Virus record (IMG/VR): IMGVR_UViG_2831870349_000001
Reading direction: 5' to 3' (one strand)
Length of the DNA stretch: 64,000 bases
Origin: a virus
Taxonomy: Duplodnaviria > Caudoviricetes
Positions within the stretch are counted from its first letter, which is position 1, and each line of letters opens with the position of its first letter. Positions 54-39,771 of this stretch are shown here, piece by piece. The position numbers were made by a program, and so were the translations under genes. A model generated the notes under the pieces. The model was not told the origin of the DNA. It was given only the letters and a program-made list of their open reading frames with translations, and searched no databases.

Positions 54-73
54 ATTATTGATCGATCAATATT
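54..73. promoter_or_regulatory. Dispersed palindrome copy 1 (ATTATTGATCGATCAATATT)
   Basis: 19/20 match to the perfect palindrome at 26520. Confidence 0.8.
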
Positions 74-349
74 TCAGCGCTTCTGCATCGCCTTATTCAT
101 GGCGTCGATATCTTTTTGATTGTTCCGTTCCATCGTTTGCTGATTGAGCGGCGCCCCTGGGCCTGAAATTGCCTGTTGCATCAGAAGCACAGCATCTTTG
201 AGTGTTGGACGGTGCATGTGCGGCCCGAGAATGGCCGACGCGATCAGGCCCGTCGCCCAGGTCGCAATCTTGCGCTTGGACCAGCGTTCGCCGCGCTTCA
301 GGAGCCGCGCGGCCCAGCGTTCAATAAAATCTGGATTGATCATATTCAT
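74..349 (-). CDS. Hypothetical membrane-anchored protein
   Basis: ATG overlaps the upstream TAA (TAATG); one hydrophobic segment. Confidence 0.6.
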   Translation of the reverse strand: MNMINPDFIERWAARLLKRGERWSKRKIATWATGLIASAILGPHMHRPTLKDAVLLMQQAISGPGAPLNQQTMERNNQKDIDAMNKAMQKR

Positions 350-1065
350 TACCTGGGTGAAACGTAGCCGCCTTCGAATAACAATGGGCCTCGGCAGTGA
401 GCGCATGTCATTTCGCGGCGATCCTCGTTAGCGATCAGGACGATCGAACCATTGCAGATCGGGCATAAACCGATATGCATATTTCGCCAGCGATATCTCT
501 CCCCAGCTAACTCCTTCTCGTCGAGAGAGCCAACCCGGCCGAGGAGCGGCTTCCCTATGCCCTCATAGATCGCCCACAAAAAGGCGCCGCAGAGCGGGAT
601 CCCGAGTATCGACCAGATGCCTCCAACGTAAACAAGGAAGGGTCCAATAAGTCCTGCCCACCAGAATATCCAGATTGGGACGATGGTGAAACCTCCGGAT
701 CTTTCCTTCGTCGCTTCCCGAATCGAACGTGTCGCCTGCTCGTCAATCTGCTGAGGTGTGGCCTGGTTGAACTTTACGGCTCCCGGACGCCACGCGCTAA
801 CAGTCTTCTCAAGGGGGTCTGCTGGCGAGACAAGAAGCGCGGTCGGTGCGTGAACGACAATGAGTGGAGAACCCGTGAGGGGCGCGTTACATTGCTTGCA
901 AATCTCAGTTCCGGCATCGTTCAGCAGTCCGCAGGTTGAGCAATGGTTATCCTGTGGGGTAACGGCTGGCGCAGCGGCCTTGGCCGCCGGCTTCCCATAT
1001 TTCTGACACCGCGCGCAGTCGAGATCGAACGCCGTCATGATATAGCCGCAGTCGGGACATTCCAT
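349..1065 (-). CDS. Zinc-ribbon membrane protein
   Basis: Several CxxC pairs (CPDC/CARC, CSTC/CKQC, CPIC/CAHC) and two TM segments. Confidence 0.75.
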   Translation of the reverse strand: MECPDCGYIMTAFDLDCARCQKYGKPAAKAAAPAVTPQDNHCSTCGLLNDAGTEICKQCNAPLTGSPLIVVHAPTALLVSPADPLEKTVSAWRPGAVKFNQATPQQIDEQATRSIREATKERSGGFTIVPIWIFWWAGLIGPFLVYVGGIWSILGIPLCGAFLWAIYEGIGKPLLGRVGSLDEKELAGERYRWRNMHIGLCPICNGSIVLIANEDRREMTCAHCRGPLLFEGGYVSPR

Positions 1066-1082
1066 ACGGTCGACCTCTGATA

Positions 1083-1481
1083 TTACCTCACTGCAAGCTT
1101 GCATAGGATGTGGCGAATTTGGGCCGCGTCAAGCCCTGGCTGAAGCGGAAGATGATCTCCCCATAATCCATGATCACATTCGTAATCCAGGCAGGCGCCC
1201 GCCCAGAGCAAATGGTGGGCGATCTCGTGCCGGATACCGTGAGCGATGGTGGTCGGCGCGTAGTGAAAGTTAATCACGATGCATCCACGATCAGTAGGAG
1301 TGTAAAAAGCAGCCCCATATCTAGGATTTCTGTCTGCGACCATTTCGATCCCAAGCCCACGCGCCACTCTGATGCCTGACATGACTTCGTCGGCGACATA
1401 GCCGTCATACAACATTTCGAGCTTCCGATGCAGGTTCTTCCCGATACAATCCAGGTCAATCCCGTATACATCCATGTGCAA
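1083..1481 (-). CDS. ImmA/IrrE-family metallopeptidase (anti-repressor)
   Basis: HEIAH zinc motif; directly downstream of the XRE repressor. Confidence 0.75.
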   Translation of the reverse strand: MHMDVYGIDLDCIGKNLHRKLEMLYDGYVADEVMSGIRVARGLGIEMVADRNPRYGAAFYTPTDRGCIVINFHYAPTTIAHGIRHEIAHHLLWAGACLDYECDHGLWGDHLPLQPGLDAAQIRHILCKLAVR

Positions 1482-1484
1482 CGC

Positions 1485-1937
1485 TTACTCACCCTCCGTA
1501 CCGTCCTCAAAGTCATCATCGAATTTTGAGCGGTGTCCGATTGCCGTATCTGAATCGCTTTCCAAGATTGCCCTGAGGACATTCTTCGCCAGCGGAATTT
1601 TGTCTTGGCGTCCACTAAGCTGTTCGAAGAGATGATCGAGTTCAGCGTCACGCTTTCGGGTAATTATTCGCTGTTCAACTTTAAAGCCAGCAGCATCTAA
1701 ACCGGAAGCTATAAGGGCCTGAACAAAATCTACATCTGAGCCGGGCGGGGCCAGCGCCCTAGCGAGTTTTTCGACAACTTTTTTTGAAGGCGCCCGAGCG
1801 CCTCGTTCCAGGGCAGATGCGTAGCCTTGGGTGATATTAGCCATATCGGCCAAATCATCTTGGGATAACTTTTCAGGGTATTGGCGACGCTGCTCGGCCA
1901 ACCATAGGCTGAACGTGCTTGCGTTTTCCTTGCTCAT
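1485..1937 (-). CDS. XRE-family HTH prophage repressor
   Basis: LSQDDLADMANITQGYASALERGARAPS HTH; divergent from the Cro-like gene. Confidence 0.9.
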   Translation of the reverse strand: MSKENASTFSLWLAEQRRQYPEKLSQDDLADMANITQGYASALERGARAPSKKVVEKLARALAPPGSDVDFVQALIASGLDAAGFKVEQRIITRKRDAELDHLFEQLSGRQDKIPLAKNVLRAILESDSDTAIGHRSKFDDDFEDGTEGE

Positions 1938-2002
1938 AAAGTCAATCTCAATTTCTAAACAGGCTATCATTTTGTCTCCTAATGGAGATAGACACAGTAT
2001 AA

Positions 2003-2076
2003 AACAATTTGTTGCAAAAATAAAGCGACAAATTGTTTTAAAACATATTGCTATCCCCAATACAATATGTTATAAT
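2003..2076 (+). promoter_or_regulatory. Lytic promoter with ACAAWTTGT-type operators
   Basis: TTGCTA(2048)-17bp-TATAAT(2071); AACAATTTGTT 2003, GACAAATTGTT 2027, weaker copies at 2042 and 2061. Confidence 0.75.
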
Positions 2077-2082
2077 CCCTCC

Positions 2083-2340
2083 ATGCCTAAGCAATTAGAA
2101 GTCTATTCGGAATTGCGAAAGCTCCGCGACGCCATGAATAACGGCAAGGGGTGCAGCGCACAAGAATTTGCCAACATGGTGGCCGCCATCCTTGGAGAGA
2201 AGGAGCGCAGCGGCGGATCCATCATCGCGATCGAGAACCGTGGCGTAAAAGATTATTACGTGATCCGTGCCCTCGCGTCGATCCATGGGATGACGAATGA
2301 GGAGATGGCAGAATTGGTGAACCCTGACAAAATTAAATAA
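2083..2340 (+). CDS. Cro-like HTH regulator
   Basis: Small XRE-like HTH (CSAQEFANMV...IIAIENRG) divergent from the repressor. Confidence 0.75.
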   Translation: MPKQLEVYSELRKLRDAMNNGKGCSAQEFANMVAAILGEKERSGGSIIAIENRGVKDYYVIRALASIHGMTNEEMAELVNPDKIK

Positions 2341-2387
2341 CAAATTGTTCTAAAAATCTTGCTATTTTTAGAACAATTTGTTATAAT
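2338..2387 (+). promoter_or_regulatory. Second early promoter within an operator inverted repeat
   Basis: TTGCTA(2359)-17bp-TATAAT(2382), flanked by AACAAATTGTT and AACAATTTGTT. Confidence 0.75.
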
Positions 2388-2421
2388 ATCCTCAGTCCAC
2401 TCTACTGAGGAGCAAAAAAAG

Positions 2422-2802
2422 ATGTCCGCCGCCGCATATTTCCGCAATCTGGTCGAGGTGAATAACGAAGTTGCCGCCTTTGAGCGCCGAACCCGGGAGA
2501 TCGAAGCCTCGCACCGCGCGCAGCTCCTCAGCGAGCAGGTGGCGGCAATCCAGAGCGACTACGAAATCACGGTCTCGGACGATCACATGCTGCTGACGCA
2601 CATGATGGAGCAGGACGACTTCGCGAAGGTCTTCCGGGTTCCCGGCACAACCGACGTGGACCGCGACCGAACCCAGGTCGGTCACCGCACCCCGTTCCTG
2701 GCGCGCGCCTTCGAAGTCGTGATCGAGCAGCGGATCGAGGCGAATCGCCGGGAGCGCCTGGCGGCTCAGAAAATGAACGCCAGCCGAAAGGCGGCGGCGT
2801 AA
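2422..2802 (+). CDS. Hypothetical phage protein
   Basis: GAGGAG RBS; operonic. Confidence 0.7.
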   Translation: MSAAAYFRNLVEVNNEVAAFERRTREIEASHRAQLLSEQVAAIQSDYEITVSDDHMLLTHMMEQDDFAKVFRVPGTTDVDRDRTQVGHRTPFLARAFEVVIEQRIEANRRERLAAQKMNASRKAAA

Positions 2803-3116
2803 TGGGAACGGCTGCTCAGGCGCTTGGCGTGATGGTCCCGGCGGGCGTCACGGAGTTTGACGCGGACCTCGATCTGCTCGCGATCCTCATCTTCCATGGG
2901 GCGTTGACGCAAGACGAGGCGATGGAGGAGCGGGAGGCGCTGTCGCTTCGCATGAACGCCTACTTCGCCGATCAGATGAACGCCTACTTCGCCGATCAGA
3001 TGAACGCCGACGGCGGCGAGTGCGATCTGGTTCTTCGGTTCTCGTCGGGACATTGCGGTACGGACGAGGAAGCCGCTGCTGAACCATTCTTTTGTGAACT
3101 GCCGCTCGCGGCTTAA
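2802..3116 (+). CDS. Hypothetical protein with internal 24-bp duplication
   Basis: TAATG coupling; MNAYFADQ repeated. Confidence 0.65.
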   Translation: MGTAAQALGVMVPAGVTEFDADLDLLAILIFHGALTQDEAMEEREALSLRMNAYFADQMNAYFADQMNADGGECDLVLRFSSGHCGTDEEAAAEPFFCELPLAA

Positions 3117-3167
3117 TTGATTTTGTAATTATCTTCTGATTGATTTTGAGAGTGTGGGGAGACGTCA

Positions 3168-3389
3168 ATGAAGCAGCCTTTGCGGGTTACATTGTCAACG
3201 GCGGACGGGCGGGTGATCATGGAGAGTTCCGCTCCGGGCGAGCGAATCATCCACGATCGCCTGGAATACCAGATCGCGCTCGCCAGGGAGCTTTTCGCGG
3301 CGCGCGGGATCCGCTTCACTGCGGAAGACCGCGCCATCATGACACGAAATCACGAGCAGAGGATGCAGGCGGCGGCGAAGGCCGCATAG
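3168..3389 (+). CDS. Hypothetical protein
   Basis: GGAG RBS; operonic. Confidence 0.55.
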   Translation: MKQPLRVTLSTADGRVIMESSAPGERIIHDRLEYQIALARELFAARGIRFTAEDRAIMTRNHEQRMQAAAKAA

Positions 3390-3446
3390 CGCGAGTGGAG
3401 ACGAAGGGCGAATTGCACATTTGAGTTCGCAGTTTGGGAGGGTTTG

Positions 3447-5018: not shown

Positions 5019-5540
5019 ATGGAGATCGCGATGGAGTTCCTGGATCCCTCACTCGAAAAATCGGATTTATCGGAGACCGATTTTTCAAAATCGAATGCGC
5101 CAAAGACCGAGTCGCCGCATCTGGTCATGGTTCGCTCAATTCAGAGCTCGCCGGATGTTTTCGCGCATATCGCGTTCAGCGACCGCGTGATGTACTGTCT
5201 GGCGGGATGCTCGCTCGCGCTTTCGGCCGCTTGTGGCCTCGCCGGCGGCGCACTCTTCTACTGGCTCGCGGCGGGGTTCCTGATCCAGGCGCTGATCTTC
5301 GCCGTGGCGCCGTGGGAGAACCGGTCGCACAAAGCGCGCCTCGCCGCCTGGCGCGAGGAGCAGTCGGCGCTGACGCTGATGGTTGAGATCGCGGAGCCGG
5401 TCTCCGAAGAGGATGCGCAGAAAGTTGCGGGCCCCGTCTTCGTCGAACTTCCGACCTCCTGCCGCCGTCCCGAAGTCTCCGCGATCCGCTCGTTCAAATG
5501 CGGCACCCGTCCGGCTGGCAAGAACGGAGACTGGCGATAA
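5019..5540 (+). CDS. Hypothetical membrane protein
   Basis: Two TM segments; operonic. Confidence 0.6.
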   Translation: MEIAMEFLDPSLEKSDLSETDFSKSNAPKTESPHLVMVRSIQSSPDVFAHIAFSDRVMYCLAGCSLALSAACGLAGGALFYWLAAGFLIQALIFAVAPWENRSHKARLAAWREEQSALTLMVEIAEPVSEEDAQKVAGPVFVELPTSCRRPEVSAIRSFKCGTRPAGKNGDWR

Positions 5541-5542
5541 CC

Positions 5543-8026
5543 ATGCTTGCTGAAATCGATACTAAAATTCAGACAGTCGGTCAACTCGCGCCAAGAGAGG
5601 CCGGCGAAGGCGAGGATCTGAAGATCTCCGACAAACTGCGCGTTCTGGCGAACGGGATGCAGGCGGCCATCGATGTCAAGCTTGCCCCTCGCCTTGCCAA
5701 CACACCCAAGCGTATCCGTGAGGCGGAGGATGCCGAGCGCGACGCGAAGCGGATGCAGCGCGTCCAGGCATCACTGCAATATCTGGCGGATGCCCACGAC
5801 GCTGGCACGGTTCCTCTGGTCGTCTCCCGAATCAAGACGAAGTCGGTCATCGAAAACATTCTCTTCAATACGAAGTTCCCGGACTGGATCGGATCCAGCA
5901 GCGAGCAGGGGCGACTACTCGCTGCTGGCATCGCGACCGCAGCGGATTTTGATGAAGCGAAGAAGATTCTGGAGGCCGCCGCCGAGGACGCCGGCGGGGA
6001 ATCGAAAGAAGCACTGAAGTTGCGCAAGCTGATGCGCGGGCTGGTCGGCGTCAACATCCCCGGCTACTTCCCGACGCCGGACGGATTGGTGACGCGCCTT
6101 TTGGAGCTTGCCGAGATCGAAGCGGGAATGAGGACGTGCGAGCCCCAGGCAGGCAGCGGCCATATCGCCGACCGGATCCGCGCCGAACATCCCGACGTCC
6201 CGCTCACGGTGATTGAGATCAACCTTCAGCTTCGCGAGATCTTATCGGCCAAAGGTTATCCGATTGCGGGGTCCGATTTCCTCGAATGGCGCTCGGAAGA
6301 GCTCTTCGATCGATTTGTCTGCAATCCACCGTTCGAGCGCGGCGTCGATATCGATCATGTCCGTCACGCGTATGAGTTGCTGGCGCCGGGCGGGCGCCTT
6401 GTATCCGTGATGTCCGACGGCGCGTTCTTTCGGTCCGATAAGAAGGCATCGCTCTTCCAGCAGTGGTTCCGGGTCAATGACGGCGAGGCGTTCGAAGTTC
6501 CCCACGGCTCCTTCCTGGAGAGCGATAAGAAGACGGCCGTCAGCACGAAGATCATCGTTCTGAATAAGCCGGCGGCTCCTGTCTTGACACTGGTCACATC
6601 CGTGGGAGAAGCGCGCATCGAAAATAATTCGTCAGGCTCTGAGAATTATTCATCGATCAATAATGCTGTCGGCCCTGACACGCAAGATATTCCGCTTGAG
6701 AATCTCCTTCCCAATCCTTTTCAGCCGCGTGACATATTCGCTCAAAAACCGCTGGAGGACCTGGCGCGCAGCCTGACCATAAACAAGCAACTCCAGCCGA
6801 TTGTCGTCCGCCATGCCGCAAAAGACGCCGGCAAGTTCGAGATCGCCTGCGGCGAGCGGCGCTTCCGCGCGGCGAAGATCGCGGGACTTGCTTCATTGCG
6901 CGCTGAAGTCGCTGTCTACGATGATTTGCAGATGGCGCGTATCGCGACGGCCGAAAACGATGAGCGTGAGCCTCTCAATCCCCTGGAGCGCGCTCGTGGA
7001 TATGCGAACCGCGTGAAACTCGGTCAGACACAGGCGGAAATTGAGGCGGAGACTGGCGTCGATCAATCTTCCATCAGTCAAACGCTGAACTTACTCACGC
7101 TTCCTGAAAGTGTCCAGGATCATCTTCGCCACGGGCGCATCTCCGCCACGCACGGTTTCAAATTGCTGAAGCTGCGTAAGCTACAGGGGACCGAAGCGTC
7201 GATGATCAAGTTCGCTGGAGACGCTTTCGCCGCGTCCTGGTCCGTCAGCAAATTGGATCAGGTAATTACCGATCATATCGCCGACCTTCAGCGCTCGGCC
7301 GCGTCTCCCTACTTCAATGTGGTGGCGCCAACAATTTCGGCCACCGTCTTCTCTGAGCCGGGACCGATCCCCGCCGCCGAAGTCGAAGCGCCTCCGGCGC
7401 CGGCAATGTCAGAACGATCCCCAAATAGCAACGAGGAGGAAATTGATGGCAGTCATGAGATGGTCGCACAGGACGTATTTTCGTCCGGAGATCCCGTGCC
7501 GGTGGTGGCCGCTGCTGGAGCGACTGAGCATGCAGCGCACGAAGACGCGCCAGCTTCATCATCTGCGGACGACGCGCCTTGCGAAGTACGATCATCTGCA
7601 CCACATGACACAGTGGACGCACAGGCAGCCTCAGTACCGGAGGCCGCTACACCGACCGGGCCGGTCGAGGTGCTGATCGGAGAGGATATCCCCTCGATTT
7701 GCCACCATTGTCCGCTCAGCGCGGCGACGATGGTGAACATTCGTGACGGCGTTCGAGCATCGATGCAGGGGGCGCAGGCTGCCGATCAGACCGATGACCG
7801 CACCGTGACACTCTCAAAGGACAGCACGGACGCGCTCTGGGAAATGGGTCTGACGGCGGATCAGGCAATTGCGGAGCTGCTCGAATACCGCCTTGTCCCA
7901 AAGGCCAAGAATGCGCTTCGCATGCTTACGGACGCCTATAACGAAAACCATGCTGAAAATATCAATCTGTCCGAGCGCCTGAGCTCCATCGTGCTGACAC
8001 GCGCCACACAGTCGGAGGGCTTCTAA
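5543..8026 (+). CDS. N6-adenine methyltransferase fused to ParB/Spo0J domain
   Basis: YFPTP, EPQAGSG (SAM binding) and NPPF (catalytic) motifs, then NPFQPR, LQPIVVR, GERRFRAA, ENDERE-LNPLE and an HTH. Confidence 0.9.
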   Translation: MLAEIDTKIQTVGQLAPREAGEGEDLKISDKLRVLANGMQAAIDVKLAPRLANTPKRIREAEDAERDAKRMQRVQASLQYLADAHDAGTVPLVVSRIKTKSVIENILFNTKFPDWIGSSSEQGRLLAAGIATAADFDEAKKILEAAAEDAGGESKEALKLRKLMRGLVGVNIPGYFPTPDGLVTRLLELAEIEAGMRTCEPQAGSGHIADRIRAEHPDVPLTVIEINLQLREILSAKGYPIAGSDFLEWRSEELFDRFVCNPPFERGVDIDHVRHAYELLAPGGRLVSVMSDGAFFRSDKKASLFQQWFRVNDGEAFEVPHGSFLESDKKTAVSTKIIVLNKPAAPVLTLVTSVGEARIENNSSGSENYSSINNAVGPDTQDIPLENLLPNPFQPRDIFAQKPLEDLARSLTINKQLQPIVVRHAAKDAGKFEIACGERRFRAAKIAGLASLRAEVAVYDDLQMARIATAENDEREPLNPLERARGYANRVKLGQTQAEIEAETGVDQSSISQTLNLLTLPESVQDHLRHGRISATHGFKLLKLRKLQGTEASMIKFAGDAFAASWSVSKLDQVITDHIADLQRSAASPYFNVVAPTISATVFSEPGPIPAAEVEAPPAPAMSERSPNSNEEEIDGSHEMVAQDVFSSGDPVPVVAAAGATEHAAHEDAPASSSADDAPCEVRSSAPHDTVDAQAASVPEAATPTGPVEVLIGEDIPSICHHCPLSAATMVNIRDGVRASMQGAQAADQTDDRTVTLSKDSTDALWEMGLTADQAIAELLEYRLVPKAKNALRMLTDAYNENHAENINLSERLSSIVLTRATQSEGF
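6645..6664. promoter_or_regulatory. Dispersed palindrome copy 2 (ATTATTCATCGATCAATAAT), in the MTase-ParB linker
   Basis: 19/20 match; encodes NYSSINN. Confidence 0.8.
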
Positions 8027-8030: not shown

Positions 8031-9905
8031 ATGACTCCTAAGAAGCCATTTGTTTGCGTGGATCTCTTTTGCGGGGCCGGCGGGATCAGTCAAGGTCTGC
8101 GCAATGCCGCCAAGAAGGTTGGCTATACGGCGGCGCTTCTCGCGATCAACCACTGGCCAGTCGCGATCGATTCGCATACGCTCAATCATCCAGAGGCCAC
8201 ACATATTTGCGCTCCGGTGGACGGCGCCAATCCTCGCGAGCTTGTCCCAGGCGGGATTGTCCATCTTCTTTGCGCGGCGCCGGAATGCACCCATCACTCC
8301 AATGCGCGCGGGGGTAAGCCCAAGAGCGAACAAAAGCGATCAAGCGCCTGGGACATCCTTCGATGGGCAGACGCGCTGTATGTTCACCACATCTTGATTG
8401 AGAACGTGCCGGAATTCCAGAAATGGGGGCCGCTTCATCCCTGCACTTGTGGGGTGGAGGAAGGCGCTGAGCACCTGAAATCCTGCTTGATCGGGAAGCC
8501 GATCAAAGAAGAGGAAGGCCGCTTCTTCCGAAACTTTATCCGCAACTTGGAGGAGCTTGGCTATACCGTCGAATTCAAGGTGCTTACCTGCTGCGAATAT
8601 GGCGATCCAACCAGCCGCAAACGCCTGTTCATCCAGGCCCGGCTCGGCGGTATCGCGCCTGCCTGGCCGGAAATTACGCACGTTCCCGCCGCTGAAGTCG
8701 CGTCGCGTCCAGGGAAGAAGGCTCAGCTTGTCGCCCGTGACATCATCGACTGGAAACTGAAGGGCACATCGATCTACGATCGGCCGGCTCAGGGCAAAAA
8801 AAACCTCGTTGCCGCGACGATGAAGCGCATCCACGCCGGTGTTTACAAATTCGCGGGATTGCCATTCCTTGTTCCGAATTTCGGGGAGCGAGAAGGGCAG
8901 CAGCCGCGTACGCACTCGATTTATTCGCCATTGTCCGCCGTCACCAGCCACGGCGCCGGAGCGATCTGCCAGCCGTTTCTCGTCGTGCTCCAGAACCATC
9001 GTGATGGTTACAGCCTGGAGAAACCGTTCCCAACGATCATGACGCGCCGGCAGTTCGGTGTCGCCGAGCCCTACATCGCGCCGATCACGCACACGGGATC
9101 CGGGAATCGATGCCGGGGCGTGGATAAGCCGCTCTTCACCGTTACTGGAGCCAAACGTGGGGAACTGGCGTTACTGGAGCCCTATATGGTGGTCAATCGC
9201 AAGAATGCGGACGCACATCCGATGGATGTTCCCATGCGCGCGCTGACGACCGGTAACATCATGGGAGTTGCGGAGCCTCAGATCGTAACCGACTCGGTTA
9301 ACGCCTTCCTCGTGAAATATTACGAAGGAAGTGACGCCGCCTCGCTCGACGCCCCGCTGCCAGCGGTCACCTCGAATTATGAACATCTGGCGCTGATCGA
9401 AACTGTTCCTGAATGGAACGAGACGATGCCGGCGTTCATGACGAAATATCATGGCTCGCACCAGGGGCGAAACGACGGTGATGGGCGCGTACTTTCGGTT
9501 GGCTCGCCGCTCCCTGCTCTCGACACTTCGAATTGCCTGGGTATCGCTGAGCCTAATCTTGTAATCCGACAACATACGCCATTCCTGATCAATTATAACG
9601 GGACCGGCGGCGCGCATTCGGTGGACGAGCCGCTGCTCTCCGCGACGGGGAACGACCGGTTCGCCCTGGTGGCGCCCGAATATCATCACTTGATCGACAA
9701 AGGCGACGTCGTCGGCTACCTCGACATTCTTTACCGGATGCTCCAGCCGCACGAGCTCGCTGGCGGCCAGGGATTTCCGAAGTCGTATATTTTCACCGGG
9801 ACGCGCGAGGCGCAAATCAAGCAGATTGGCAATGCGGTTCCTGTTGCGACCGCAGAGGCGCTTTGCACAACGATCTTCAAGACGTTGATGGCGGTGGCTG
9901 TATGA
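8031..9905 (+). CDS. C5 cytosine DNA methyltransferase with long repetitive variable region
   Basis: DLFCGAGG, PECTHHS, ENVPEF, RKRLF, QGFP and QIGNAVP motifs. Confidence 0.93.
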   Translation: MTPKKPFVCVDLFCGAGGISQGLRNAAKKVGYTAALLAINHWPVAIDSHTLNHPEATHICAPVDGANPRELVPGGIVHLLCAAPECTHHSNARGGKPKSEQKRSSAWDILRWADALYVHHILIENVPEFQKWGPLHPCTCGVEEGAEHLKSCLIGKPIKEEEGRFFRNFIRNLEELGYTVEFKVLTCCEYGDPTSRKRLFIQARLGGIAPAWPEITHVPAAEVASRPGKKAQLVARDIIDWKLKGTSIYDRPAQGKKNLVAATMKRIHAGVYKFAGLPFLVPNFGEREGQQPRTHSIYSPLSAVTSHGAGAICQPFLVVLQNHRDGYSLEKPFPTIMTRRQFGVAEPYIAPITHTGSGNRCRGVDKPLFTVTGAKRGELALLEPYMVVNRKNADAHPMDVPMRALTTGNIMGVAEPQIVTDSVNAFLVKYYEGSDAASLDAPLPAVTSNYEHLALIETVPEWNETMPAFMTKYHGSHQGRNDGDGRVLSVGSPLPALDTSNCLGIAEPNLVIRQHTPFLINYNGTGGAHSVDEPLLSATGNDRFALVAPEYHHLIDKGDVVGYLDILYRMLQPHELAGGQGFPKSYIFTGTREAQIKQIGNAVPVATAEALCTTIFKTLMAVAV

Positions 9906-10792
9906 AATCAGATCTCATGAACGCAGACGCCAAATGCCGACGCCCTGTCCTGAGATATCACGGTGGGAAATGGCGTCTTGCGTCGTGGATCATCAGCCAA
10001 ATGCCGCCTCATCGCGTTTACGTCGAGCCGTATTGCGGAGCCGCGTCCGTCCTTCTCCAGAAGCCGCGCGCCTTCGGCGAGGTGATCAACGATCTGGACG
10101 GGGAGGTCGTCAATCTGTTCCGCGTGCTGCGCGAACCGGCGGCCGCGAAGGATCTGATCAATGCGATCCGCCTGACGCCGTTCGCGCGCGCCGAATTCGA
10201 CACCGCTTACGATCGCAATATCCTGGATCCCGTGGAGCGCGCTCGCCGCCTGATGGTCCGGTCTTTCATGGGTTTTTCGTCCAGTGCGTCGGGCAAGGGT
10301 AGCAAAACAGGATTTCGATCCTATGCCTACCGCTCCTACATGACGCCGGCGGCGGACTGGGCGGGATTGCCGGCCGCGCTGCCAGCCGTGGTGCAGCGGC
10401 TGCGCGGCGTGACGATCGAGAACCGGAGTGCGATTGAACTCGTTCAATCGCACTCCACTCCCGAGACGCTGCTTTATTGCGATCCTCCCTATGTGCGCAG
10501 CACCAGGTCTTCGCTACGCTGGCCAGGGGAGAAAGCGTACGCGCATGAGATGACCGATGACGATCACCGAACCATGGCGGCGGCCCTGAGCTCGAGCGCG
10601 GCAATGGTGATCGTGAGCGGATATCGATGCGACCTTTACGATGAGATCTTCAACAACTGGATCCGATGTGACCGCGCCGGCGTGATCGCGAGCAATACCG
10701 GAAGCGCAACGCGCATGGAATCTCTGTGGCTTAATCCTGCTGCGGCCCAGGCCCGTGGTCAGCAATCTTTAGAGCTCGAGGTGAGAGCGTGA
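9902..10792 (+). CDS. Dam/D12-class DNA adenine methyltransferase
   Basis: LRYHGGKW, YVEPYCGAASV, EVINDLD and DPPY motifs. Confidence 0.93.
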   Translation: MKSDLMNADAKCRRPVLRYHGGKWRLASWIISQMPPHRVYVEPYCGAASVLLQKPRAFGEVINDLDGEVVNLFRVLREPAAAKDLINAIRLTPFARAEFDTAYDRNILDPVERARRLMVRSFMGFSSSASGKGSKTGFRSYAYRSYMTPAADWAGLPAALPAVVQRLRGVTIENRSAIELVQSHSTPETLLYCDPPYVRSTRSSLRWPGEKAYAHEMTDDDHRTMAAALSSSAAMVIVSGYRCDLYDEIFNNWIRCDRAGVIASNTGSATRMESLWLNPAAAQARGQQSLELEVRA

Positions 10793-12883: not shown

Positions 12884-13309
12884 ATGTCAAAGGCAGTCAT
12901 CAATATCGGATATTTCTGCGCGAACCTACATTCAGTCGTGAATGCTCATCTCAACGGCTTCAGCGCGCAGCTTCTGGCGGAAAGCTATGGGGACCAGATT
13001 GAGCGGTTTCCGGAGGGCGGAATCGCCTTCACGTGTGAGGATCATTCGCATCGAGCCATTTACGTGACGATCAGTACGGAAGCCCCGGTGAGTTTGGAAA
13101 GCGACGAGCAAGTCGACCGGCATGCGCGCTGGCTTGCAGATGAGTATTATCGCCGCCGAATCCCACTCAACGACAATGAGCCAACGGGTTTTGATGATTG
13201 CGGACCCATGCTGCAGTGGAGCTATCGCAACCGAGCCCGCCTGTTCCTGGGCGTCCCAGAGGTGCGATGGGAGGAGGCGCTAGAGAATTCCCGGAGGCGG
13301 TCGCCATGA
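12884..13309 (+). CDS. Hypothetical protein
   Basis: Operonic. Confidence 0.6.
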   Translation: MSKAVINIGYFCANLHSVVNAHLNGFSAQLLAESYGDQIERFPEGGIAFTCEDHSHRAIYVTISTEAPVSLESDEQVDRHARWLADEYYRRRIPLNDNEPTGFDDCGPMLQWSYRNRARLFLGVPEVRWEEALENSRRRSP

Positions 13310-13782
13310 CGCCTACGGTCTACACGATGGGCTACGAGGGACGCAAGCCGGCGGACCTATTGATGATCGCGGAGCGCCTGGACGCGACGATTGTGGACAT
13401 CCGGTACCGCGCCTGGAGCGCGCATCCGCAATGGCGGCATGGAGCCCTTCGCGAGTTTCTCGGCGATCGTTATGCGCGCTGCGTGCAGCTTGGCAATAAG
13501 CGCTACCGGGAGCCCGCGAACGCGGACGGAAGCCGCCAGATCGAATTGGTCGACGCCGCCGCCGGAGCGCAGTATGTCCTTGAGCATCCGCATTCCGTGA
13601 TTTTGATGTGTGGGTGCCGGAACGCGGAGACATGCCACCGATCCAACGTTGCGCGATTATTGATCGATCAATACGATCAGCGAGTTTTTGAAATCATGTG
13701 GGCGCGCGGGGCTAACGCCTCTGGGATTCTCTGGGCGGCTTACGACTGGGCGGAAGTCGATTCGTGGGCGGGAAAGGATTGA
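13306..13782 (+). CDS. DUF488-family protein
   Basis: VYTMGYEG, IVDIR, LGN, LMCGC...CHRS. Confidence 0.85.
   Translation: MTPTVYTMGYEGRKPADLLMIAERLDATIVDIRYRAWSAHPQWRHGALREFLGDRYARCVQLGNKRYREPANADGSRQIELVDAAAGAQYVLEHPHSVILMCGCRNAETCHRSNVARLLIDQYDQRVFEIMWARGANASGILWAAYDWAEVDSWAGKD
13656..13675. promoter_or_regulatory. Dispersed palindrome copy 3 (ATTATTGATCGATCAATACG)
   Basis: 18/20 match, inside the DUF488 gene. Confidence 0.75.
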
Positions 13783-26289: not shown

Positions 26290-26368
26290 CCTTGGGTAGC
26301 TCAGCCTGGTAGAGCGCACGGCCTTGAAAACCGTGAGGTCGGGGGTTCAAATCCTTCCCCTCGGACCA
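26290..26368 (+). tRNA. Atypical tRNA with 9-nt anticodon loop CCTTGAAAA (Phe-GAA-like body, or Ser-TGA reading)
   Basis: TAGCTCAGCCTGGTAGAGC D-arm, CACGG/CCGTG stem, GGTTCAAATCC T-arm, encoded CCA. Confidence 0.8.
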
Positions 26369-26440
26369 GCGCCTTGCATGAAAAGTGCAATCCGGAGTGA
26401 CGGACTTCGCGGGCCGTTCCTGGTAACCGGAATCATTTAT

Positions 26441-26517
26441 GCCTGCGTAGCTCAATATAGTAGAGCGCCCGATTTGTCATCGGGAAGATGGTTGCTCACA
26501 GCGGCCCGCGGGCCCCA
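26441..26517 (+). tRNA. Degenerate tRNA-Thr(TGT)-like gene
   Basis: GCCTGCG/CGCGGGC acceptor, GCTC/GAGC D-stem, CCCGA/TCGGG anticodon stem, GGTTG/CGGCC T-stem with non-canonical loop, CCA. Confidence 0.65.
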
Positions 26518-26519
26518 GA

Positions 26520-26539
26520 ATTATTGATCGATCAATAAT
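26520..26539. promoter_or_regulatory. Dispersed palindrome copy 4 (perfect ATTATTGATCGATCAATAAT)
   Basis: Perfect 20-bp palindrome, 2 nt after the tRNA CCA. Confidence 0.85.
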
Positions 26540-31812: not shown

Positions 31813-31821
31813 CAATCCCTT

Positions 31822-33180
31822 ATGGCAGTCTTCAAGGCCGGAAAACTAAATACCGGGAAGCTGCCGGGCCTCCGCCAGCAGATCCGTCGGGGTTTGAACG
31901 CGGTCCTGTCCATTAAGGATGGCGGCGTGACGGCCGAAGGCGACGCCGGATGGAGTGTGCTCTCCGGGCGCAATCATCAGTATTACCGGGGCAGCGTCCG
32001 CAACTGGCAAAACGAGGCGGGACCGCTCTGGGAAAACCCGGCGATCTCGATCGGAATCCAATATATCTTCAACAAGGTCGCGGAGCCGCGCCTTCAAGTC
32101 GTCTCGGATCCCGACGGAACGCCCACGCCGATCCCCGGGCACGCACTGATTCAGCTGCTTCGCAGGCCCAACGGCGAATACAGCTGGCGCGCGATGCTCC
32201 AGGCCTGCGCTGCGTCCTATAAGCTGGACGGAAACGCCTATATCGTCAAGGTGCGCGGGTCCGGTGGGTACGGGTCCGTTCAGCAGCTCTGGTATATCGC
32301 GCACTGGCAGATGGAGCCTCTGGCGCCGCTCGGGAACGGGCCGACCGAGTTCTACAAGCGCACGCTCCCAAATGGTAAGACGGAAGTCTATGCGCGCGCC
32401 AACGTCATCCACTTCAAGAACGGTCTCGATCTGGAGAACAACCGGAAGGGCTACGCCCCCTTCCGCGCTGAGTTCCGCGAAGTCGTCTCCGACAACGAGA
32501 TCGCGACGTTCACCGCGTCGATCCTGAAAAACCTCGGCGTCGCGATCATGATCTCCCCCGTCGGCGACGACGCCGAGATGGACACGGATACGGTCGACGA
32601 GCTGAAAGACAAGGTCCGGGTAGGTATTTCGGCGGACAACCGGGGCGGCCTGGTCATGCCCTCGATTCCCGTACGCGCCGATCGCATAGGATCCACCCCG
32701 CAGGAAATGGCGCTCGACACCATCGGGGACCGTCCGGAGTCGCGGATCTTCGCCACGCTCGGCATCGAGCCGATGGCGGTCGGACTTCCCTCCGGCAACA
32801 CGAAGTACGCGAACAAAAAAGAGGCGCGCGAGGCGTCCTACGAAAACGGCATCATCCCGATGCTTTCCGTGTTCGGGGAGACACTCACGGATGAATTGCT
32901 GCCCGATTTTCACGCCGGGCAAAAGAGTGCGCCGGACGAGGTCGTCGCGTTCAACTACGACAAAGTCCGTGACCTTCAGCCGGACCTCGACGCCAAGCAC
33001 AAACGCTTCTGGGGCGACTTCAAGAACGGTATCGGCAAACTGAGCGAAGCGCGCGCCGGTCTTGGTTACGAGAAGGACGAGCAGATTGACGGATATTATT
33101 TCGAGTTGATGCCGGCAAAAACCGCAACGCCCGACGGATCCCAGGGCGTCAGCGACGATCCTGACGCCGCCGACAAGTAG
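31822..33180 (+). CDS. HK97-family portal protein
   Basis: LLRRPN, L.GNAY, VIHFK, G..P motifs; position. Confidence 0.93.
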   Translation: MAVFKAGKLNTGKLPGLRQQIRRGLNAVLSIKDGGVTAEGDAGWSVLSGRNHQYYRGSVRNWQNEAGPLWENPAISIGIQYIFNKVAEPRLQVVSDPDGTPTPIPGHALIQLLRRPNGEYSWRAMLQACAASYKLDGNAYIVKVRGSGGYGSVQQLWYIAHWQMEPLAPLGNGPTEFYKRTLPNGKTEVYARANVIHFKNGLDLENNRKGYAPFRAEFREVVSDNEIATFTASILKNLGVAIMISPVGDDAEMDTDTVDELKDKVRVGISADNRGGLVMPSIPVRADRIGSTPQEMALDTIGDRPESRIFATLGIEPMAVGLPSGNTKYANKKEAREASYENGIIPMLSVFGETLTDELLPDFHAGQKSAPDEVVAFNYDKVRDLQPDLDAKHKRFWGDFKNGIGKLSEARAGLGYEKDEQIDGYYFELMPAKTATPDGSQGVSDDPDAADK

Positions 33181-33279
33181 ATCTATCGTAAGAGTAGATC
33201 TGCCGAGAGAATAGATCTGTCGTAAGAATAGATCTGTCGTAAGAATAGATCTGTCGTAAGAATAGATCTGTCGTGAGAT
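33178..33279. repeat. Six 17-bp tandem repeats (TAGATCTGTCGTAAGAA)
   Basis: Read directly; intergenic between portal and protease. Confidence 0.92.
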
Positions 33280-33325
33280 CGGAACTCTTTGATTCTCACG
33301 ACATTCCCCCGACGAAAGCCTTCCC

Positions 33326-36375: not shown

Positions 36376-36517
36376 TCATCGGCCCCGTCCTCGTCCTAAA
36401 CAGACCTCGCCTTTGACCAAAATCCTCCGCTCCATCCGCCCACGCGCACCGCCCACGGCGGTGCGCGTGGGCGGCGGGGCGGATTATCTACGGCGCGCCT
36501 GCTGGCGCCGGGAGAGA

Positions 36518-36973
36518 ATGAATATGATCGGTACTCACAACTTTAAGAAGGTCGTCGCAATCGCGCCGGCGTCCTTCACCAACGGCGCGACCGCGTCGGG
36601 GATCATCGATACCGCCGGTTTCGACGCGATGACGCTGGATCTAATCACGTCGCCGGCCAATAACGCCACCAACTCGCCGACGGTCCTCAAGCTCCAGGAA
36701 GCGGATGTGACCAACGCCACATCGTTCACCGACATTCCCCAGTTTGTCGGCGGCGGCGCGGGCGGCTTCGCCATCCCGAATGAGAAGACCGTGGCTAGCA
36801 CCGCCCCGTTTGCCTCGTTCAACGTGGACCTTCGGAGTCGCAAGCGCTATATCCAGGTCGTGGACGTTCCGCAGACCACGCAGATCGTCAGCGCGATCGC
36901 GCAGCTCGGCCGCGCGGAGCAGACGCCCGTCGGCGCGGCGTCGCAGAACGTTGCTGTCGTTGTTACTGGCTAA
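36518..36973 (+). CDS. Capsid decoration/cement-like protein
   Basis: IDTAGF...LQEAD...F.D...KRYI beta-sandwich directly after the capsid gene. Confidence 0.65.
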   Translation: MNMIGTHNFKKVVAIAPASFTNGATASGIIDTAGFDAMTLDLITSPANNATNSPTVLKLQEADVTNATSFTDIPQFVGGGAGGFAIPNEKTVASTAPFASFNVDLRSRKRYIQVVDVPQTTQIVSAIAQLGRAEQTPVGAASQNVAVVVTG

Positions 36974-37070
36974 CTGGTCTGCTGAAATCAAATGCAGGCT
37001 AAGACCAATACAGTCTTAGCCTGCGCTTAAAAGCGCATTCATTTTCCAGGTTCCTCGGGAGGGAGCAATT

Positions 37071-37406
37071 ATGGACGATCAAACTACAACGGCCTCTAAA
37101 GAGCCAAAAGATTTTAACAGCGATGGTCCCGTTCAAGAAAACATCACAACTCAGGCAGTCGCAAAGCGAGCCTTAGAAGTGATGAAGTGGGCAGGATGTG
37201 CATGCGGATGGTATGACCACACCGCTGAGGGCGGTCCAACAGTCGAAAAAATGGAGAGCGATCTCCTATTTCTAGAAGCCGTGGCTGATGGTGACGACGA
37301 AAAGACCATTCACAAAAAAATAGTTGCCCTGCGCGCTAAGCAATTAGGAGATGACTTTAAAGTCCTTCTTTATAAAGCTGAGTTGCCGACAAGTTATGAC
37401 AGATAG
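37071..37406 (+). CDS. Moron hypothetical protein (lower GC)
   Basis: GGGAGG RBS in a hairpin loop. Confidence 0.6.
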   Translation: MDDQTTTASKEPKDFNSDGPVQENITTQAVAKRALEVMKWAGCACGWYDHTAEGGPTVEKMESDLLFLEAVADGDDEKTIHKKIVALRAKQLGDDFKVLLYKAELPTSYDR

Positions 37407-37442
37407 GCGAAAGCCAAAAAATAGGCTTCGGCCAAACCATAG

Positions 37443-37505
37443 CCCTGCGAGCGCTCCCGACGCTCGCAGGGTGAAATTGTATCGGGGGCGTCTCGGGAGG
37501 GCGTC
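37443..37505 (+). promoter_or_regulatory. Kissing-hairpin leader motif, copy B
   Basis: Loop CTCCCGA complementary to loop TCGGGAG (compensatory change relative to copy A). Confidence 0.7.
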
Positions 37506-37510
37506 AGCAG

Positions 37511-38257
37511 ATGGCATTAACAGAGCAAGAAGTCGCGGAGATCAATTCTCTGCTCGCTGAGTCGGGCAAGAGAGCCGCGCGCAAGATTTTCCTGGAAGTG
37601 GAAGCGAAGAGACTCCTCGAGGAATCGATGGCGGCCAACGAAGAACTAAACAATCTGCGTTTTGACTATTGTCCCGCACAGCAGCGGATTAATGAAATTC
37701 TTCGCGACGCTTCAATTCGTGAATCTGCGTGCCCAGGCGAAGTTCCGGGGCGTGTTGTAGAAAACGCCATCGCATGTGGGGACGACAACCAGGCGCTTGC
37801 TGAAGACGAACGCCCGCTGAATCGCTATGCAGTGGATTATGAGTTTGGGGCAGCAAAGTTCTACACACGATCTATCGACATAGACGAAGCGCGGCTCGAA
37901 TTTTATGACTGCGCCAACGAATGCTTCGGTATTCGTAAGTCGATTGGAGACGTAAAAATCAACCTTGAGGCGGAGAACGTCCACCTGCCTGTCCAGGATG
38001 CGAAACAGATCTCCTATTTCACTCACGCACTTCTATACGGCCAAACTTCAGGTATCGGAGACGAAGTCATTTTCGACCGGCGTTATAAGACGGCAAGCGG
38101 TGAGGGGTGGAAACTTCAAAACGAGAGCGGAGAGCGTTGCACCTGCGCGACGCGTGGCAGCGCCGAACTTGCCTGCGAAGTGCATCACTTCTGGGTTGAA
38201 AATCATAACCACGTCTGCCCATGCACCAATCCGTCGTGGGAGGCGCCGCACAAATGA
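37511..38257 (+). CDS. Moron hypothetical protein
   Basis: ORF with RBS; Cys/His-rich C terminus. Confidence 0.6.
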   Translation: MALTEQEVAEINSLLAESGKRAARKIFLEVEAKRLLEESMAANEELNNLRFDYCPAQQRINEILRDASIRESACPGEVPGRVVENAIACGDDNQALAEDERPLNRYAVDYEFGAAKFYTRSIDIDEARLEFYDCANECFGIRKSIGDVKINLEAENVHLPVQDAKQISYFTHALLYGQTSGIGDEVIFDRRYKTASGEGWKLQNESGERCTCATRGSAELACEVHHFWVENHNHVCPCTNPSWEAPHK

Positions 38258-39771
38258 ATCCTCAAAACCTCCTTTTGAATCTAGGCTCTGGGGATCTTCC
38301 ACTTCGCGGCCACATCAATATCGACCGCAAATACGAAAAGGATGTCCTTCACGTGGACGAAGACACCATTCTCTGGCGCGGCGAAGTCTACCCACTGGCT
38401 TTCGATGATGAAAGCGTCTGCGGCGTGCGCGCCTCACACGTGTTGGAGCATTTCAGCCATCGCGAGACGATGGCGGTCCTGGCCGACTGGGTTCGCGTCT
38501 TGAAGCCGGGCGGGCTTCTCTGTGTCGCCGTCCCGAACTTCGAATGGATCGCAAGGCGCTACCTCGAATCCCTCACCAATTCCGCCGCCGCCGCGCTTCC
38601 GCTGGAAGGGTATCTGATGGGCGGGCATGTGGATGATAATGATCACCACGGCGCCATTTTTGATGAGCAGAGCCTGCGCGCGGCAATGGAGCATCTGGGA
38701 CTGGTCAACATCTACACATGGGATTCCGAAGTCGCGGACTGCGCCTCGCTTCCCGTTTCGCTGAACCTGGTGGGGATGAAACCTCTTCCGGCGGATTATT
38801 CATCGATCAATAATCCTGCTCCTGGACGAATAGAGAACCCACACGGGTTTGCTGTGGGCGATCAAGTTTGGGACAATTCCGGCGACTGTGGAAACGGCTT
38901 TGGCGATGTCTTGGAGATCTACGAAAAGCACCCCAATTGCGTCAAAGTGTATTGGGAGAATGAAGGCAATCTTTGTGTGGTCCATTGCTCAATTCTAGAT
39001 CATGTCGCTGATGTTAAGACAGTTCCACAGGACAGCGTGAAAGCATCATCAGGTCCGGATTTGCGCTTTGCCTCCATCGTCATCAAGCCCGGCGACGTCG
39101 CGGCCGTGGCTACCGTACCGCGCCTTGGCTTCACGGACACGCAGTTCTGCATTATCCGCGCCGTCTGCGCCCATCCGATCAGCTTCGAGCAGAGCGGCGG
39201 CGTATTCTGGGACCAGGGGATGACACGCGTCTTCGAAAGCCATATGGACGACGGGACGAAGTATCTCCTGGCGATCGATTATGATTCGCTTTTCACCGCT
39301 GAGGATGTGCGGACGCTGTATGGCGTCATGGAAGCGCGGCCCGACATTGACGCGCTTTGCCCGGTCCAGATCCGGCGCGAGAACGATCATTCGCTCTTTA
39401 CCGTGGAAGGCGACGACGGCAAGAGCGCAACCGAGATCGATTATTCACGTTTCGAGACGGACGTTCTGAAGATCCGAACCGGCCATTTTGGCCTGACGAT
39501 GATCCGCGTGGACGCGCTGCGCCGCCTGCCGCGTCCCTGGTTCCATGCCCGGCCCGACGACGCCGGCCGCTGGGGCGACGGGCGCGTGGACAGCGACGTC
39601 GCCTTCTGGCTCCAGTGGGCCGAGGCGGGCAACTCGCTGTACCTGGCGAACCGTGTCCCGATCGGTCACCTCCAGCTCATGGCAACCTGGCCGAGTGAGG
39701 AACTTGGTTTGAAGACTCAGTATGTCAGTGACTGGCTGAAGACAGGGAAGCCGGCGGGCGCGTGGCAATGA
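38254..39771 (+). CDS. Class I SAM methyltransferase fused to GT-A glycosyltransferase-like domain
   Basis: LNLGSG, ASHVLEH, VLKPGG; C-terminal YLLAIDYD (DxD), GHFGLTMI, D..FW, GH. Confidence 0.8.
   Translation: MNPQNLLLNLGSGDLPLRGHINIDRKYEKDVLHVDEDTILWRGEVYPLAFDDESVCGVRASHVLEHFSHRETMAVLADWVRVLKPGGLLCVAVPNFEWIARRYLESLTNSAAAALPLEGYLMGGHVDDNDHHGAIFDEQSLRAAMEHLGLVNIYTWDSEVADCASLPVSLNLVGMKPLPADYSSINNPAPGRIENPHGFAVGDQVWDNSGDCGNGFGDVLEIYEKHPNCVKVYWENEGNLCVVHCSILDHVADVKTVPQDSVKASSGPDLRFASIVIKPGDVAAVATVPRLGFTDTQFCIIRAVCAHPISFEQSGGVFWDQGMTRVFESHMDDGTKYLLAIDYDSLFTAEDVRTLYGVMEARPDIDALCPVQIRRENDHSLFTVEGDDGKSATEIDYSRFETDVLKIRTGHFGLTMIRVDALRRLPRPWFHARPDDAGRWGDGRVDSDVAFWLQWAEAGNSLYLANRVPIGHLQLMATWPSEELGLKTQYVSDWLKTGKPAGAWQ
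38795..38814. promoter_or_regulatory. Dispersed palindrome copy 5 (ATTATTCATCGATCAATAAT)
   Basis: Identical to copy 2, with GG/CC flanks; encodes DYSSINN. Confidence 0.8.

Follow-up and report, generated by a model that had tools for sequence, protein, structure and literature searches.

What binds a palindrome that recurs along a phage genome, and that is also written into the gene of a DNA-binding protein of that phage? The 64,000-nucleotide stretch of viral DNA analysed here (IMG/VR record IMGVR_UViG_2831870349_000001; hereafter the window, in whose coordinates positions are given) carries dispersed copies of a 20-bp palindrome, one of them inside a gene for a putative N6-adenine methyltransferase (MTase) fused to a ParB-type protein. 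The original prediction, made from the letters of the window alone, had read the copies as parS-like sites at which the ParB part loads, and this reading is supported by the confinement of the motif to a prophage, its conservation in a related phage (G009) and the covariation of site and protein across phages. We consider it probable, at roughly 70%, that an orphan phage ParB CTPase (cytidine triphosphatase) uses the palindromes as its cognate, parS-like loading sites. As is typical of parS-type sites, they are short, replicon-specific, located in or near parB and co-varying with the helix-turn-helix (HTH) of ParB.

The window corresponds to the minus strand of bases 6,373,955–6,437,954 in a single contig of 7,645,051 bases and 60% G+C (genome G000). 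A scan with the motif ATTATT(G/C)ATCGATCAATAAT at up to three mismatches returned five matches in the window (Table 1) where 0.02 are expected by chance, and at least five were reached in none of 100 dinucleotide-preserving shuffles. The previously described five copies with 0–2 mismatches, their spacing of 6.6–12.9 kb, the location of three of them within genes (for the MTase-ParB fusion, a DUF488 protein and a methyltransferase-like protein) and the position of one in the linker of the fusion, seven residues ahead of its ParB_N domain, were all borne out. Identity between copies is confined to the 20 bases, and their flanks cannot be aligned. The entire genome contains nine sites at this threshold, seven of which fall within one 82.8-kb stretch, all inside a single prophage of about 100 kb; these include two perfect copies, at window-equivalent 72322 and 82786, which lie 8.3 and 18.8 kb past the window's right end. 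The motif is not scattered over the host chromosome, and the two copies off the prophage are at genome positions 69149 (one mismatch) and 1509212 (two mismatches). Site counts across the genome at zero to six mismatches were 3, 4, 2, 0, 2, 16 and 101, and true copies are thus clearly set apart from the background. The seven prophage copies are spaced 6.6–33 kb apart over about 83 kb, the largest gap (33.5 kb) extending across the tail genes.

Table 1. Palindrome copies in the window and the genes discussed with them
Feature	Position	Strand	Description
Palindrome copy 1	54..73		ATTATTGATCGATCAATATT, 1 mismatch; intergenic, touches the stop codon of minus-strand open reading frame (ORF) 74..406
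Palindrome copy 2	6645..6664		ATTATTCATCGATCAATAAT, 1 mismatch; within the MTase-ParB gene, codon phase 2, YSSINN = residues 383-389
Palindrome copy 3	13656..13675		ATTATTGATCGATCAATACG, 2 mismatches; 3' part of the DUF488 gene, codon phase 3, encodes LLIDQY
Palindrome copy 4	26520..26539		perfect (0 mismatches); intergenic, starts 3 nt past tRNA-Thr
Palindrome copy 5	38795..38814		ATTATTCATCGATCAATAAT, 1 mismatch; within the methyltransferase-like gene, interdomain, codon phase 2, encodes YSSINN
MTase-ParB fusion gene	5498..8026	+	842 aa from first ATG; database form begins at residue 16
DUF488 gene with copy 3	13306..13782	+	start = Met aligned with the start of the related-phage (G009) orthologue
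Methyltransferase-like gene with copy 5	38221..39771	+	516 aa; no homologue on the G009 phage contig

The perfect palindrome can be translated without a stop codon in only one of the three frames, and all three intragenic copies deviate from it solely where TGA or TAA would arise. In the two copies in phase 2 (6645 and 38795) the G form would give TGA and both carry TCA (G to C), the same hexapeptide being encoded in interdomain stretches of two unrelated proteins. The copy in phase 3 (13656) falls in the conserved C-terminal helix region of the DUF488 protein and reads TAC in place of the TAA of the palindrome. Of the four intergenic copies, three are perfect and one has a single mismatch.

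Additionally, the motif is present in the one other phage with a homologue of the fusion. Genome G009 (same genus, 88% complete) encodes a fusion protein of 55% identity (P0003) on an 84-kb contig, C112, whose map is that of the G000 prophage circularly permuted, with approximately 65–85% nucleotide identity where alignable. All five motif matches (at up to three mismatches) in this 6.5-Mb assembly are on C112, and the contig has two further copies with four and five mismatches, as against about 0.2 expected from the background rate in G000. Four site pairs are syntenic between the two phages: the G000 copies 6645, 26520, 72322 and 82786 are identical to their counterparts at 17, 19, 17 and 18 of 20 positions, respectively, while the 100-nt flanks anchored at these sites are 26–37% identical. 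The degenerate copy (17/20) of the first pair is at the same place in the fusion linker of G009, and the YSSIN that the site encodes forms an island of identity amid a diverged and gapped stretch. As judged from these comparisons, the palindromes are selected at the DNA level, and the sites are specific to the phage and conserved in position. As a separate observation, the 18-base core of the motif was found in only one IMG/VR contig, L015 (locus L178, viral record G418, 2071–2090), where a single perfect palindrome encodes YSSMNN within a DUF3102 gene and a weak ParB_N-like gene (24.5 bits, below the cut-off of 26.3) lies some 400 nt downstream of the copy; this is a lead and not evidence.

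The methylase part of the fusion, at approximately residues 40–360, contains the SAM-binding motif I (EPQAGSGHIA) and the catalytic motif IV (NPPF) of an N6-adenine methyltransferase, and its phage homologues are annotated as N-6 adenine methylase. The ParB part comprises a ParB_N domain (PF02195; residues 396–487, E value 4e-19, 68.9 bits against a cut-off of 26.3) and an HTH_ParB domain (PF17762; residues 491–591, 3.4e-15, 56.5 bits against a cut-off of 22.6), and all three CTP boxes are found (NPFQPR, GERRFRA and ENDEREPL), including the GERRxRA motif that had been described as intact. Matches of the ParB part to solved Spo0J, ParB and Noc chains have E values from 1e-24 to 8e-28 (Spo0J/ParB best, at 8e-28), and by its domain matches it is a complete canonical Spo0J-type ParB, more than a ParB/Srx fold. 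HTH_ParB is followed by a long low-complexity stretch rich in Ala, Pro, Ser and Glu and then by a conserved helical C-terminal domain of approximately 70 aa. No match to the PF23552 dimerisation domain was obtained in the fusion protein, no LG(R/K)GL ParA-binding motif was seen ahead of its ParB_N, and comparison of the C-terminal domain with the ESM Atlas yielded generic helical look-alikes only. Furthermore, no match to the ParA families PF13614/PF01656 was obtained anywhere in the prophage, so that the absence of ParA previously noted for the window extends to the whole element.

This architecture is rare. In a sample of 401 genomes from the phylum, the C-terminal domain was identified in three (G000, G009 and G026), and a protein search with the ParB and C-terminal parts of the fusion returned only its own protein (P0002), that of G009 (P0003) and a weak match (P0004, 32% identity across 34% of the query); the C-terminal part of the G026 ParB, used as a protein query, found only itself. 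An alignment of the C-terminal domain searched against metagenome contigs gave 164 pattern matches and the whole fusion searched against genome contigs gave 140, none of which were confirmed, and the sole viral-contig match to the C-terminal domain (L097) was rejected as an unrelated structural protein with a chance RMLTDAYN. Proteins that join an MTase to a complete ParB were limited to P0001 and P0003 (word search of 5.8 billion clusters and HMMER search of 1.84 billion representatives), and the only full-length relative of the fusion was P0003, from a metagenome-assembled genome labelled Capsulimonas sp.

Related ParBs that lack the methylase are accompanied by palindromes of their own. A 74-kb contig of G026 that is phage-like throughout (C17) encodes a 536-aa ParB with 33% identity to that of the fusion, the same C-terminal domain and no methylase. 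A blind search for repeated palindromes on this contig returned a different motif, ACTTTTCGCGCGAAAAGT, at 2201, 22809, 32717, 41376, 50355 and 57064; six of the twelve matches to it in the G026 genome (at up to three mismatches) are on C17. The copy at 32717 is within parB, where it encodes residues 55–60 (LFARKG), nine residues before ParB_N, as compared to a gap of seven in the fusion. Two loci among the closest viral-contig relatives display the same arrangement, as ATTCCGCGCGAAAT encodes parB residues 12–16 in L098, 11 residues before ParB_N, and TTTCCGCGCGGAAA encodes parB residues 7–12 in L099, 10 residues before ParB_N. The 40-kb record of L098 has five copies (2584, 8728, 13779, 18840 and 26761) that are 5–8 kb apart. 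The same position in four diverged parB genes is thus occupied by a different palindrome in each. None of the G026, L098 and L099 ParBs, each with its in-gene site, is fused to a methylase, and those of G026 and L098 also have dispersed copies; since three of the closest ParBs of the clade have sites without a methylase, the site system is older than the fusion and independent of it.

The association was also seen in a wider sample, in which a 14-bp perfect palindrome was counted where its copies were more than 500 nt apart with at most one mismatch. Among 80 viral-contig loci with an HTH-type ParB, 26 had a palindrome not of low complexity at least twice and 10 had one at least three times (seven of these ten being one lineage), as against two and one, respectively, of 27 control loci with a methylase only. 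Eight whole phage records in three motif lineages have 5–7 dispersed copies each; seven of these are additional to the L098 record, and reversed-pattern controls for them gave 0–1. Sites of the ATTTC(C/G)CG(G/C)GAAAT type are present in G412 and G413, the latter a complete 59.7-kb genome with terminal repeats, while G414–G417 have copies of TGCAGACGTCTGCA over 32–48 kb. Lineage-specific 14-bp palindromes were recorded, for example ATTTCGCGCGAAAT, ATTTCCCGGGAAAT-like sequences and TGCAGACGTCTGCA (loci L098, L099, L106, L148 and L136–L176; records G411–G417). Orphan ParBs with 5–7 cognate palindromes every 5–13 kb may be a common means by which phages coat or address their genomes.

Site and protein were then compared at the residues known to set specificity. 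Residues 173, 179, 184 and 201 (Caulobacter numbering) are described by Jalal et al. as setting the preference for parS or for the Noc-binding site (NBS), with Q173 favouring adenine at site position 1 and R201 favouring cytosine at position 6 (PMC7383237). These residues were mapped by a HMMER alignment to chain 6t1f and by MAFFT alignments. They are Q, T, T and T in G000, with the half-site A-T-T-G-A-T-C when read to the centre, and Q, T, E and T in G009, with the same half-site. In G026 they are P, T, D and S (half-site T-T-T-T-C-G-C), in L098 Q, S, K and S and in L148 Q, A, Q and T (both A-T-T-T-C-G-C), and in L106 Q, A, K and R, with the NBS-like A-T-T-T-C-C-C. Q173 is paired with A at position 1 in five of five cases (G000, G009, L098, L106 and L148) and P173 with T (G026); likewise, the sole R201 (L106) is paired with C at position 6, and S or T at residue 201 with G at that position in three of three (G026, L098 and L148). 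In addition, two helix positions at which G026, L098, L148, L106 and L099 have N and R are altered in G000 and G009 (ISQTLNLL and VSQTIKLL), which fits the altered site core of G000 and G009 at positions 4–6. That site changes track ParB residues 173 and 201 is suggestive, the proteins being few and partly related and the comparison not statistical.

A number of observations weigh against the palindromes being ParB loading sites, in addition to those given below in favour of another regulator. The case is wholly comparative. The G000 half-site departs from the parS/NBS frame at positions 4–6 and has no recognisable parS core, so that its assignment to the HTH rests on analogy. A clamp would require dimerisation through the C-terminal domain, which is putative in the fusion protein, and the family of this domain consists of three members that are kin and not independent; moreover, the Pfam MTS match of the fusion (22.4 bits) is slightly below the 23-bit cut-off. 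Counterparts in G009 are missing for the G000 copies 54 and 13656, and in G000 for some G009 copies, one of them between portal and next gene. In the G026 genome, four of the twelve ACTTTTCGCGCGAAAAGT matches lie on three short contigs that resemble mobile elements (with integrase, primase-polymerase or methylase genes), and two weak matches with three mismatches lie elsewhere. Finally, no second copy of the L099 palindrome was found at up to three mismatches in the 14.8 kb examined.

If the palindromes are loading sites, ParB dimers would recognise them through the HTH domain, by analogy with ParB, KorB and BisD, and would then close as CTP-bound clamps that spread for kilobases. ParB typically covers 10–15 kb around a site (PMC12409273), and at such coverage seven sites would suffice for most of the non-tail part of the genome, along which clamps would be loaded. 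Covalent attachment would keep the methylase enriched on phage DNA, a condition that would be conducive to fast self-methylation for anti-restriction or self-marking. It is a plausible but tentative proposal, less likely than not, that carriage of the methylase by clamps along phage DNA would provide quick and selective self-methylation with the host chromosome largely spared. The sister ParBs, which have sites without a methylase, speak against methylase delivery as the primary role. Conversely, it is favoured by independent fusions that join the same methylase family with a beta clamp or with further DNA-binding modules. This family has 23,992 representatives at E below 1e-10, and among 44 members scanned, fusions were identified to LPD29 (13), ArdC-N (one), DarA_C (one), MutS domain I (two), a complete DNA polymerase III beta sliding clamp (two, P0036 and P0119) and ParB_N (one, P0048). 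The fused members of the family also include P0067, P0113, P0007 and P0117. P0048 joins an MTase to ParB_N with no HTH match, and nearly all of the 28 viral-contig loci that a search with it returned match the methylase alone; in L083, found in this search, methylase and ParB are separate neighbouring genes, and no repeated palindrome of AT or mixed composition was found in its 23 kb. This line was dropped.

The ParB part might alternatively bind the palindromes in order to regulate from the site, to serve as an adaptor in partition or to compact the phage DNA, with the methylase behaving as a free phage enzyme, neither tracking nor targeted. This is in line with the G026, L098 and L099 ParBs, whose sites in the absence of a methylase imply that the ParB-site system has a role of its own, and with relatives such as KorB (PMC11790492), BisD (PMC12409273) and VirB, which are described as transcription regulators; the long linker and separate C-terminal domain of the fusion are likewise BisD-like. 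We regard it as unlikely, however, as the covalent fusion necessarily keeps the methylase at ParB and has been retained at 55% identity in a second phage. Furthermore, the repeated fusion of the methylase family to the beta clamp, MutS domain I, ArdC-N and ParB_N suggests selection for a methylase tethered to DNA.

A different phage regulator, such as a global repressor or activator with stoperator-like operators, could also bind the palindromes, the link to ParB being coincidental. Several intergenic copies are at operon boundaries, and copy 82786, located between divergent genes, is separated by 16 nt from a promoter-like element (TTGACT-17-TATTAT) and adjoins a conserved 79-aa ORF with 66% identity in G009; many of the phage proteins lack an assigned function, and small conserved ones are possible binders. 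Conversely, copies 13656, 26520 and 72322 have no promoter-like site adjacent, three copies are deep within genes, and the early promoter region (2040–2400) lacks the motif, its inverted repeats being of other sequences. The CI-like repressor of the prophage has no homologue on C112, even though G009 keeps the same motif. The stoperator alternative raised in the original prediction is consequently disfavoured: stoperators of the cluster A mycobacteriophage type are numerous asymmetric sites that follow the direction of transcription and bind the immunity repressor, whereas the palindromes have no orientation and are missing from the immunity or early promoter region. As candidate binders, the CI-like repressor, the HTH_36 initiator with iterons and the M78 peptidase were rejected for want of a C112 homologue (best tblastn E value 1.8 or worse), and other G000 ORFs were rejected as only five match the G026 contig C17 (tblastn 1e-8). 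These five encode ParB, a tyrosine integrase, a metallopeptidase, a DUF2280 protein and ORF 47063, the last of which is absent from G009. Another binder would also leave unexplained both the four distinct palindromes that stand 7–11 codons before ParB_N in four diverged parB genes and the tracking of ParB residues 173 and 201 by site positions 1 and 6, and we consider such a binder distinctly unlikely.

It is very improbable that the palindromes are not sites of a phage protein at all but targets of a host factor, structural elements of the cruciform or terminator type, what is left of a tiny mobile repeat, or sequences connected with restriction (ClaI/Dam cores). In favour of such readings, ATCGAT and two GATC occur in the core, a terminator-like hairpin is scored for one copy (owing only to its own symmetry), and two copies are off the prophage. 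On the other hand, a host regulon of only two sites in 7.5 Mb is unlikely, the lack of a common flank speaks against a mobile element, the prophage shows neither avoidance nor any special status of GATC and ATCGAT (9.4 GATC per kb against 8.6), G009 copies have partly lost the GATC core, and the intragenic copies are kept despite their coding cost. Among the seven G009 copies the core has two GATC in two, one in three and none in two, and the other lineages have palindromes without GATC, so that the earlier suggestion of GATC-sensitive loading is unsupported as a general feature; the G009 match to the D12 methylase is weak and partial (E value 2e-7 over 92 residues). Sites of a tyrosine recombinase were rejected since the palindromes lack a spacer and recombination between sites so dispersed would leave the genome scrambled, as were terminase pac sites, which would not be dispersed. 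The two copies off the prophage (69149 and 1509212; loci L013 and L014) are intergenic, near hypothetical, XRE-type and AbiEii-like ATPase/NADAR genes, with no phage-type ParB homologue nearby; copy 1509212 is 29 kb from the host parAB and approximately 90 kb from oriC.

The parA and parB genes of the host lie together at 1.538 Mb, and dnaA and the GC-skew minimum are some 60 kb away. The canonical parS consensus is TGTTNCACGTGAAACA. With this consensus, no canonical parS was detected in the genome at up to one mismatch, and four sites were detected at two mismatches compared to 14 for the reversed control. A sequence that fits the parS frame, GGTTTCGCGCGAAACC, has five copies in the genome (1768948, 1769841, 1794020, 1795519 and 4281809), four of which are 173–200 kb from oriC. 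Residue 173, a specificity position, is Q in the host ParB. Being absent from G009 and G026, the sequence was not adopted as the host parS.

A large serine recombinase is encoded at the left end of the prophage, just left of the window, and fragments of a capsid gene from another prophage, of the P22-portal type, are found at both ends (window-equivalent -3923..-3399 and 96324..96770); that capsid gene seems to have been the place of insertion of the prophage. The early region contains three consecutive DNA methyltransferase genes, for the fusion, a C5 enzyme (8031–9905) and a D12/Dam-like enzyme (9863–10792), and the window further encodes replication genes, two tRNAs, terminase, portal, capsid and large tail genes. 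The tRNA genes, tRNA-Ser(TGA) and tRNA-Thr(TGT), are at 26290–26517. Two TTGCTA-N17-TATAAT promoter-like elements at 2040–2400 face the gene of the CI-like repressor (1485–2060), and a perfect 21-nt inverted repeat (2337–2357 and 2364–2384) overlaps the rightward one; these inverted repeats are probably immunity operators. Between portal and next gene (33161–33295) there are about seven tandem 17-bp repeats (TAGATCTGTCGTAAGAA), and in G009 a copy of the 20-bp palindrome occupies the equivalent intergenic place instead of tandem repeats. About eight tandem 18-bp repeats (AGGACCTGTGGATCACTA) at 45549–45692 lie, in the style of an iteron origin, within the minus-strand gene of the HTH_36 replication initiator (45095..45967), which is part of a reverse-oriented module (44569–46919) among the structural genes that has no homologue in G009. 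Beyond the window, an imuB-dnaE2 pair for an error-prone polymerase, two SRAP genes and a tyrosine integrase gene are found towards the right end of the prophage at genome positions 6,344,700–6,349,400 (window-equivalent 88540–93226), with 65–85% protein identity on the G009 phage contig.

In the literature searched, there was no description of DNA sites for an MTase-ParB fusion or of genome-wide dispersed sites for an orphan phage ParB. The locus offers a concrete pair, in which an adenine methylase joined to a complete Spo0J-like ParB is matched with seven candidate sites of loading; if carriage of the methylase by the clamp is true, a CTP clamp could address an enzyme to a chosen replicon and thereby lay down a self-addressed anti-restriction or epigenetic mark. 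The covariation of sites with residues 173 and 201 would add new specificity pairs to the ParB/Noc recognition code, and the 5–7 cognate palindromes of unrelated phages point to a general use of ParB clamps by phages outside partition.

Comparison with known systems places the locus among several that share some of its features. Plasmid RK2 has 12 KorB operators, whose classes are of mixed promoter proximity, and the mixed promoter proximity of the G000 copies resembles these classes. KorB and its OB sites likewise combine a ParB-family CTPase that acts as a sliding clamp with scattered palindromes on a mobile element, some sites being at promoters and some far off (PMC11790492). KorB differs in having IncC (ParA) and KorA as partners, a different C-terminal domain and no enzyme fusion, whereas the G000 element is an integrated phage that has no ParA and carries a methyltransferase. 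BisD of ICEclc (Pseudomonas putida) is similarly an orphan hybrid ParB of an integrated element with a ParB-linker-C-terminal build (PMC12409273). Its bisS sites are two 23-bp palindromes (11-bp inverted repeat), with site-stimulated CTP hydrolysis and spreading over approximately 50 kb (PMC12409273). In contrast to the fusion with its seven sites, BisD has two sites, activates promoters together with BisC and, as described there, has no methylase (PMC12409273), and no sequence relation was found between the C-terminal domains of BisD and the fusion. VirB, described as a transcription regulator, is a further relative in the ParB family.

With regard to the chromosomal systems, ParB/Spo0J-parS and Noc-NBS, the ParB_N and HTH of the fusion match their solved structures. 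In Bacillus subtilis a parS site lies within the spo0J (parB) gene. The sites of the sister phages keep the TTTC.C|G.GAAA frame and vary at positions 1 and 6, which are described as those that separate parS from NBS (PMC7383237), whereas the G000 site is 20 bp long, AT-rich and altered in its core at positions 4–6, and marks the phage and not the origin region. The fusion also differs from chromosomal ParB in having neither the ParA-binding motif nor PF23552. The IR sites of phage N15 are dispersed over its genome. N15 is, like the element studied here, a temperate phage with a ParB-type protein (SopB) and several palindromic sites, IR1–4 (PMC7205306), but its prophage is a linear plasmid that has SopA and needs partition, while the G000 element is integrated and without ParA.

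Methylase fusions of the ParB fold are reported as enriched or common in prophages, their role and DNA targets being left open, and some are reported to bind ATP instead (PMC12704722), while a ParB-methylase of Bacillus cereus is reported to nick DNA non-specifically (PMC5512222). These fusions are described by their ParB-CTPase fold, and no cognate DNA site is given in those descriptions (PMC12704722; PMC5512222); the G000 fusion, unlike them, has a complete Spo0J-like ParB (N domain and HTH_ParB) behind the methylase, together with candidate sites. In a likeness to P1 DarB and the polyvalent methylases, the methylase family of the fusion is also joined to ArdC-N, LPD29 and DarA_C and occurs within giant proteins of mobile elements, architectures that have been described for anti-restriction polyvalent proteins (PMC5512222). 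In contrast to these proteins, the fusion is encoded in the early region and, as far as can be seen, is not virion-associated. The finding is an extension of the known ParB-family clamps with element-specific palindromes, of the KorB and BisD kind.

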